From UHGV virus genome UHGV-1565976: a DNA stretch of 11,964 nt; one strand, given 5' to 3'. The DNA is from a virus. The notes under the pieces are model-generated. The model worked only from the letters and a program-made list of their open reading frames with translations. It did no database searches and was not told where the DNA came from. The number at the start of each line of letters is the position of its first letter. Position 1 is the stretch's first letter. Below are positions 7,535 through 8,023 of this stretch, piece after piece. The position numbers were made by a program, and so were the translations under genes.

Positions 7535-8023
7535 ATGAGTCTTTTGAATGAAGTTCAGAAATTCATTGAAGCCCATCCGGGGTGTACTTCCGGAGACATT
7601 GCGGATGCTTTTGCAGGTTACTCACGGCAGCGCGTTCTGCAGTCAGCAAGCAAGTTACGTCAGAGTGGGCGTGTGGCTCACCGTTGTGAAGGAGATACAC
7701 GCAGACATTTCCCGCGCCTGACTGAGAGAGCACAGGAGCCGGAACCACAACCAGTTCGTGAAACCAGACCTGTGCGCAATTTCTGTGTCGGCACTAACGA
7801 CCCGCAGGTGATTTTGTGCCTGACTCGCCAGGCGGAAGAACTGGAGTCCAGGGGCTTATTCCGTCGAGCTGCAACGGTGTGGATGGAGGCATTCCGTGAA
7901 AGCCACTCCCAGCCAGAACGAAACAATTTTCTGGCGCATCGTGAGCGGTGCTTACGGAAAAGCAGCAAGCGCGCTGCATCGGGTGAAGAGTGGTATCTGT
8001 CAGGGAATTACGTGGGGGCTTAA
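7535..8023 (+). CDS. PerC/Pch-like family protein with N-terminal winged-helix-like region (162 aa)
   Basis: ATG 7535 with GGGGG 5 nt upstream; C-terminal ...ESRGLFRRAATVWMEAFRES...HRERCLRKS resembles the PerC motif as remembered; unverified. Confidence 0.45.
   Translation: MSLLNEVQKFIEAHPGCTSGDIADAFAGYSRQRVLQSASKLRQSGRVAHRCEGDTRRHFPRLTERAQEPEPQPVRETRPVRNFCVGTNDPQVILCLTRQAEELESRGLFRRAATVWMEAFRESHSQPERNNFLAHRERCLRKSSKRAASGEEWYLSGNYVGA

Follow-up and report, generated by a model that had tools for sequence, protein, structure and literature searches.

The window, a stretch of 11,964 nucleotides from virus genome UHGV-1565976, is a lambdoid early region of mosaic character. Its identity amounts to about 98% with a prophage of strain 2015C-3121 and to about 95 to 96% with phages 1720a-02, phiSTEC1575-Stx2k, and mEp460. 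The genes are arranged in the order cI (3757 to 4449, minus strand), cro, a CII/YmfL-like gene, a Rha/Ash gene, a small open reading frame (ORF), a replication initiator gene, and yfdN, and the 3' side of yfdN is occupied by genes for a Dam methyltransferase, a protein made up of a LexA DNA-binding domain only, RusA, a KilA-N protein, a DUF968 protein, and Q. The Rha/Ash gene (5348 to 6496) encodes 382 residues with an Ash-family region (residues 117 to 212), a Rha domain (residues 222 to 307), and an N-terminal extension of about 100 residues without a family match; an ORF of about the same length is named "Rha family phage regulatory protein" in RefSeq. The KilA-N protein (9542 to 10369) weakly matches PADLOC PDC-S22, the model of a candidate defence system (E value 7.9e-10), and YfdN itself has no defence-system match in PADLOC.

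The yfdN ORF on the plus strand, which runs from GTG 7529 or ATG 7535 to a stop codon at 8021 to 8023, is a real gene. RefSeq uses the GTG, which gives a product of 164 residues, and the ATG is preceded at a distance of 8 nt by an AGGGGG Shine-Dalgarno sequence and fits the MSL... N terminus typical of most relatives in the family alignment. Counted from the ATG, the coding sequence (7535 to 8023) specifies 162 residues, and its assignment to the yfdN type is based on the ORF list, the sequence, the RefSeq label, and the identity to the K-12 protein. The 489 bp are 100% identical to RefSeq genes labelled "yfdN: PerC family transcriptional regulator," and fully identical alleles are present in Escherichia coli O104:H4 and other genomes. 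We rejected an assignment of the window to the O104:H4 prophage, with which it shares about 96 to 98% identity over its length and full identity in the yfdN allele only. DNA similar to yfdN was found in 2,668 of 5,426 complete E. coli genomes, about half, and in 49 phage records that include mEp460, SfV-like phages, and Stx2a- and Stx2c-converting phages of O157:H7. At the protein level, the product and K-12 YfdN (b2357, cryptic prophage CPS-53) share 95% identity from end to end. PHROG 1324 matches residues 1 to 161 (E value 1.6e-77), and the similarity to the YfdN family takes in the PerC core as well as the winged helix and the linker. Judged by sequence, the gene is thus the lambdoid-prophage yfdN, already annotated as PerC family in RefSeq. 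The two-domain architecture of the window protein is common to K-12 YfdN, SfV Orf40, ST64B Sb43, and the mEp460 homologue, and K-12, SfV, and ST64B keep the gene in the same slot, after a replication gene (yfdO, orf39, or sb42) and before a methyltransferase gene (yfdM, dam, or sb44). The genes yfdO and yfdM, which flank yfdN in K-12, survive there as truncated remnants, and the neighbours in the window are intact; the two yfdN genes are alleles of one gene and differ in nothing substantial.

The initiator gene directly upstream (6714 to 7532, plus strand) encodes an HTH_36 N-terminal domain and a DnaD/DnaT-like C-terminal domain of the Phg_2220_C type, as identified with Pfam and PHROG. Its stop codon lies 2 nt before the yfdN ATG, and the yfdN stop codon overlaps the start (TAATG) of the phage Dam-type N6-adenine methyltransferase gene (8023 to 8676, plus strand; 156 bits with Pfam Dam, 255.6 bits with TIGR01712). 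No promoter-like or plus-strand terminator-like site was found at either yfdN junction. The gene is co-transcribed with the upstream initiator and downstream Dam methylase genes, which makes YfdN a delayed-early product of the rightward operon, and it is probably translationally coupled with both of them. The sequence-only reading had located the gene within a replication operon, and this location is borne out by its position in the rightward early operon immediately after the initiator.

Iteron-like repeats of the type GCAGGAGATTCAC are located inside the initiator gene at 6979 to 7156, with four to five direct copies and one inverted copy, and correspond to families D1, I1, I3, and I4 of the repeat search. 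The direct copies are spaced about 21 to 24 bp apart and fall into the part that codes for the low-complexity Gly/Ser/Ala linker of the initiator; a pattern search yielded 12 matches against 3.35 expected, clustered at 6981 to 7156. This cluster probably constitutes the origin of the phage, in an arrangement like that of lambda O. In Aeromonas phage AsXd-1 and in Stx1_EH1992, the gene for a homologous initiator precedes genes for an IstB/DnaC-like ATPase and a DnaB-like helicase. Searches of the early region of the window with Pfam and PHROG revealed no other helicase loader or helicase gene; the yfdN module encodes neither a DnaC-like nor a DnaB-like protein and therefore must use the host DnaB/DnaC.

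We sampled the genomic setting of yfdN-like genes in nine further contexts from metagenomic and genomic contigs and annotated phages, with relatives down to about 27% identity. An HTH_36/Phg_2220_C initiator gene lies directly upstream of the yfdN-like gene in eight of the nine, often with a 4-nt overlap, and the window has this same arrangement within a lambdoid early operon. The exception is an E. coli prophage in which a 40%-identical two-domain relative is located between HsdM/HsdS genes and Q; the occurrence of such a relative immediately upstream of Q and away from replication genes argues against a function of YfdN that is tied to the initiator. On the 3' side, most contexts contain a DNA methyltransferase gene, the family of which varies (Dam, PF05869; MT-A70, PF05063), and in a Klebsiella phage an "adenine methylase" follows a short PerC-like gene. 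This slot is a case of non-orthologous replacement at a fixed position; it is filled by Q in the E. coli prophage mentioned above and by a ParB-like protein, with the ParB HTH domain only according to Pfam, in Pantoea phage AH07. The 108-residue LexA-type protein (8673 to 8999 in the window), which has the DNA-binding domain alone and no S24 peptidase domain, is encoded two genes 3' of yfdN in nearly all of the sampled contexts.

The predicted structure of YfdN, calculated with AlphaFold2 on the family alignment, consists of an N-terminal winged-helix domain (residues 1 to 62; 7535 to 7720), a linker (residues 63 to 89; 7721 to 7801), a three-helix core of the PerC/ANR type (residues 90 to 145; 7802 to 7969), and a C-terminal tail (residues 146 to 162; 7970 to 8020), all on the plus strand. 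A sequence search of the PDB with YfdN gave chance-level matches only. The modelled N-terminal domain has helices at residues 3 to 13, 19 to 25, and 31 to 44 and a β-hairpin at residues 47 to 60 (pLDDT 84 to 90), which is the H1-H2-H3 plus β-hairpin wing topology of winged helices. Foldseek superimposed it on winged helices of ArsR, MarR, BlaI, and DsrD with RMSD values of 1.6 to 2.5 Å over 56 to 68 columns and probabilities of about 1; the E values are weak (0.007 to 0.15), as expected for a domain of 60 residues. At the sequence level, the domain gives weak MarR/Ren-like PHROG matches, a few YfdN relatives show scattered and weak matches to Penicillinase_R, HTH_24, or MarR_2, and none of the HTH families of Pfam and NCBIfam reaches its cutoff with the window protein. 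The net charge of the winged helix is modest across the family (+2.3 ± 2.5), and the recognition helix is poorly conserved. The linker is variable, disordered, and rich in Pro and Glu, with pLDDT values below 50 for residues 63 to 82 and a length of 2 to 29 residues across the family.

HMMER, run exhaustively against 1.84 billion representative proteins, retrieved 98 clusters related to YfdN, many of which are full-length two-domain relatives with 27 to 48% identity. The N-terminal extension had been described from the letters alone as winged-helix-like and atypical. The confident structure prediction and the Foldseek superpositions agree with the winged helix, but the extension is the standard form of YfdN, being included in the full-length PHROG 1324 match, conserved down to about 27% identity, and present in about half of E. 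coli. A comparison of the winged helix with lambda Ren gave an hhalign E value of 7e-4 at a probability of just 26% over 57 columns, and phrog_142 matched with an E value of 0.0086. Lambda Ren is encoded in the same slot, directly after the replication genes, but has no PerC-type domain; the likeness, which is not significant, may reflect a remote relationship or chance, and we treat it as a lead only.

The assignment of the core is supported by Pfam PerC, hhalign, the models, residue conservation, and the ANR HMM. Pfam PF06069 (PerC) matches residues 98 to 149 with 34.5 bits (E value 2.4e-8), above its gathering score of 22.6 bits, and 36 of the 37 aligned YfdN relatives match it as well. BLASTP aligned YfdN with PerC of enteropathogenic E. 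coli (EPEC; pMAR2) at 37% identity over 46 residues (E value 9e-7) and with a 104-residue enterohemorrhagic E. coli (EHEC)-type Pch protein from an O26:H11 prophage at 39% over 44 residues (E value 5e-7), and hhalign of the 37-member family profile against EPEC PerC reached a probability of 97% (E value 1e-10). The motif ...RGLFRRAATVWMEAFRES...ERCLRK, from which a PerC-family C-terminal domain had been proposed before any database search, is located at residues 105 to 123 and 136 to 141; the HMM and profile comparisons uphold that proposal for the three-helix core only. The core helices span residues 90 to 105, 109 to 122, and 126 to 143 with pLDDT values of about 94. Residues L103, R111, and A112 are invariant in the family alignment, and A100, A113, R136, and C139 are nearly so; C139 aligns with C47 of PerC. 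Across the family, the core is basic throughout (net charge +5.4 ± 1.8). When the C-terminal domain was modelled separately (pLDDT 83.5), its structural matches in the PDB were weak and TPR/MIT-like only, with no DNA-binding fold among them.

EPEC PerC (89 residues) and the EHEC PchA/B/C-type proteins (104 residues) share with YfdN a homologous three-helix core with the pattern A-x2-LE-x-(K/R)G-x-(Y/F)RRAA-x2-W...ER...R-x2-C, and all three are borne on mobile elements. However, the PF06069 match covers positions 5 to 56 of the 90-position profile only, and the proteins are not equivalent over their whole length. Neither PerC nor Pch has a winged helix; both stand alone and carry an extra C-terminal region of about 40 to 50 residues, which has no counterpart in YfdN. 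Unlike PerC and Pch, YfdN ends in its own LxGxYxG tail, with the conserved pattern W-x-L-(A/S)-G-x-(Y/F)-x-G; G157 and G161 are near-invariant, and the model confidence of the tail is low. Their genes also differ in location from a replication operon: the sampled Pch gene is found between lysis and terminase genes of the O26:H11 prophage, and perC belongs to the plasmid perABC operon. By Pfam score, YfdN is accordingly a member of the PerC family and not an equivalent of PerC or PchABC.

The core also resembles the ANR family, whose members are described as stand-alone three-helix proteins of 39 to 80 residues with a conserved Cys (PMC4038620). YfdN has the three helices and the near-invariant Cys (C139) in the last of them, as does Aar of enteroaggregative E. 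coli, but it comprises 162 residues with a winged helix, whereas ANR proteins stand alone without a DNA-binding domain. The NCBIfam ANR model (NF033650) matches residues 96 to 129 of the window protein with 20.2 bits, below the curated cutoff of 32 bits. It matches 26 of the 37 family members in register with E values below 0.01 (best 6e-9); ten relatives scored singly gave 20 to 28 bits or no match, and EPEC PerC scored 18 bits. Among predicted viral structures, the C-domain model superimposes on phage proteins named ANR family with an RMSD of 0.8 Å (TM score 0.89) and on an unnamed 60-residue phage protein with 0.7 Å; the structural E values are weak for both the N and the C domain, which are small. 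Alignments of the YfdN family or its C domain with Aar, or with a five-sequence Aar alignment, were in register but not significant by hhalign, and the Aar-seeded homology search retrieved five proteins only, too few for a good profile; Aar itself gave no match to Pfam PerC. Support for a link of YfdN to ANR thus comes from the NCBIfam HMM and from structure. The same hint of ANR was reported by the authors who studied a PerC-family protein encoded on a phage-inducible chromosomal island (PICI) that represses LEE1 (PMC11773190); PerC is not discussed in two papers on ANR (PMC5570504, PMC4038620). A relationship between the PerC/YfdN core and the ANR family is likely but unproven.

Taken together, these features lead us to favour, tentatively and at somewhat less than an even chance, a reading of YfdN as a delayed-early phage regulator in which a three-helix module, tethered to DNA, would target either silencing of the H-NS type or a partner protein. 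YfdN would be made as a delayed-early product together with the initiator and Dam, and its winged helix would tether it to DNA, at targets that may be phage specific because the relatives differ in their recognition helix. The core of the PerC/ANR type would serve as a TPR/MIT-like protein-contact module that locally disturbs H-NS-family silencing or holds a partner regulator; the analogy is with Pch, which removes H-NS from LEE1, and with Aar, which binds H-NS and AraC-type activators. The outcome would be altered transcription of phage DNA and possibly of host DNA. The domain structure, the homology of the core to PerC and Pch, the ANR likeness, and the operon structure speak for such a regulator; the modest charge of the winged helix, its poorly conserved recognition helix, the ANR score of 20.2 against 32 bits, and the weak structural E values speak against it. 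In the literature, the sole phenotypic mention of the gene is altered glycogen accumulation upon yfdN overexpression in an ASKA library screen, and YfdN is grouped with negative transcription regulators in a computed interactome. A literature search that covered part of the reports on PerC-like proteins turned up no direct assay of YfdN function.

The resemblance to PerC and Pch had raised the idea that the prophage might feed into host virulence by turning on ler and the LEE island in EHEC and EPEC hosts. The domain homology is genuine, yfdN is found in Stx2a and Stx2c phages whose O157:H7 hosts have LEE, and one group considered YfdN the K-12 homologue of PerC, close enough for a precautionary deletion from a ler-lacZ host (PMC5931665). 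However, activation of ler is reported for PerC and PchA/B/C only, and YfdN shares only the first 50 or so residues with these proteins and lacks the C-terminal half. Outside group 1, family members do not act as activators: in the same study, ler was activated at least 4-fold by PchA/B/C but less than 2-fold by PchE, with no activation by PchD (PMC5931665), and the PICI-encoded protein EcCIMP1_025 represses LEE1 (PMC11773190). PchE, encoded within Sp7, represses curli and flagella; pchD lies within SpLE1. Furthermore, the conserved partners of yfdN are phage replication and nin-region genes rather than virulence genes, and about half of the E. coli genomes, K-12 included, carry the gene, the majority of them without LEE. 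The O104:H4 lineage, with its identical yfdN allele, is one that we take to be LEE negative. Because the C-terminal half of PerC/Pch is missing, the members outside group 1 do not activate, and carriage of yfdN is frequent among LEE-negative strains, K-12 included, this is the least likely of the readings; activation of ler or LEE by YfdN is unlikely, and a Pch/PerC-equivalent activator is highly improbable. A purely ANR-like anti-activator, whose core would inactivate an AraC/XylS-type activator or H-NS by contact while the winged helix serves protein interaction or oligomerization, is supported by the in-register ANR hits, the superposition on phage ANR proteins, and the weakly conserved recognition helix. 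Aar has no DNA-binding activity and works through direct contacts with AggR and H-NS (PMC5570504), and the repression by the PICI-encoded protein points in the same direction. Yet the score falls below the ANR cutoff, hhalign against Aar is not significant, ANR proteins stand alone, and the N domain is predicted to have the canonical topology of a DNA-binding winged helix, so we consider this mode of action unlikely.

The operon position might point to two further functions. The stable location directly after the initiator in eight of nine contexts could equally well reflect a replication role, with YfdN in the slot that lambda P or a DnaC-like/DnaB-like pair takes in related phages, where it would assist the initiator in recruiting the host helicase or would organise the origin. 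The frequent 4-nt overlap with the initiator gene, the ATPase and helicase genes that follow the AsXd-1 and Stx1_EH1992 initiators and are absent here, the early region without another loader or helicase gene, and the iterons about 400 bp upstream of yfdN all fit such a replication accessory factor. On the other side, YfdN has no similarity to any helicase loader, and its homologues of known function are transcription regulators only; the DnaD/DnaT-like C-terminal domain of the initiator could itself recruit host DnaB-DnaC, a full two-domain relative adjoins Q with no initiator nearby, and in Vibrio phage D75 the initiator occurs without a loader and without a YfdN-like gene. We regard this function as rather unlikely. 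Likewise, the methyltransferase that follows yfdN-like genes in most contexts despite changes of family, together with a dam promoter that the SfV record places within the 3'-terminal part of its yfdN homologue, might indicate that YfdN is a controller dedicated to the neighbouring orphan methyltransferase, comparable to the C proteins of restriction-modification systems. AH07 and one E. coli prophage have other genes in this place, however, no consensus promoter is present at the yfdN-dam junction of the window, and the adjacency may just reflect the conserved order of the nin region; such a controller is very improbable.

A broader proposal, which we put forward as doubtful, is that the PerC core and ANR would belong to a single superfamily of three-helix modules with H-NS or AraC-type proteins as binding partners. 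YfdN would represent its widespread phage form, fused to a winged helix and settled in the replication/nin module of lambdoid phages, as a DNA-tethered anti-silencer acting on the phage's own xenogeneic DNA, and PerC, Pch, and Aar would be derivatives without the winged helix; both Aar and Pch act on H-NS, and Pch relieves silencing by H-NS/StpA/Hha/YdgT and lowers H-NS binding at LEE1 (PMC4764244). The identification of the gene adds nothing to the current annotation, in which it is yfdN of the PerC family in RefSeq. Among the uncharacterised prophage regulators of Enterobacteriaceae, yfdN is one of the most common, and Stx2-converting phages carry it. Should the core, like Pch and Aar, act on H-NS, a modulator of nucleoid silencing would be set free upon prophage induction in many strains, pathogenic or not. 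The apparent relationship between PerC and ANR would also join two families of virulence regulators that are treated separately in the literature.
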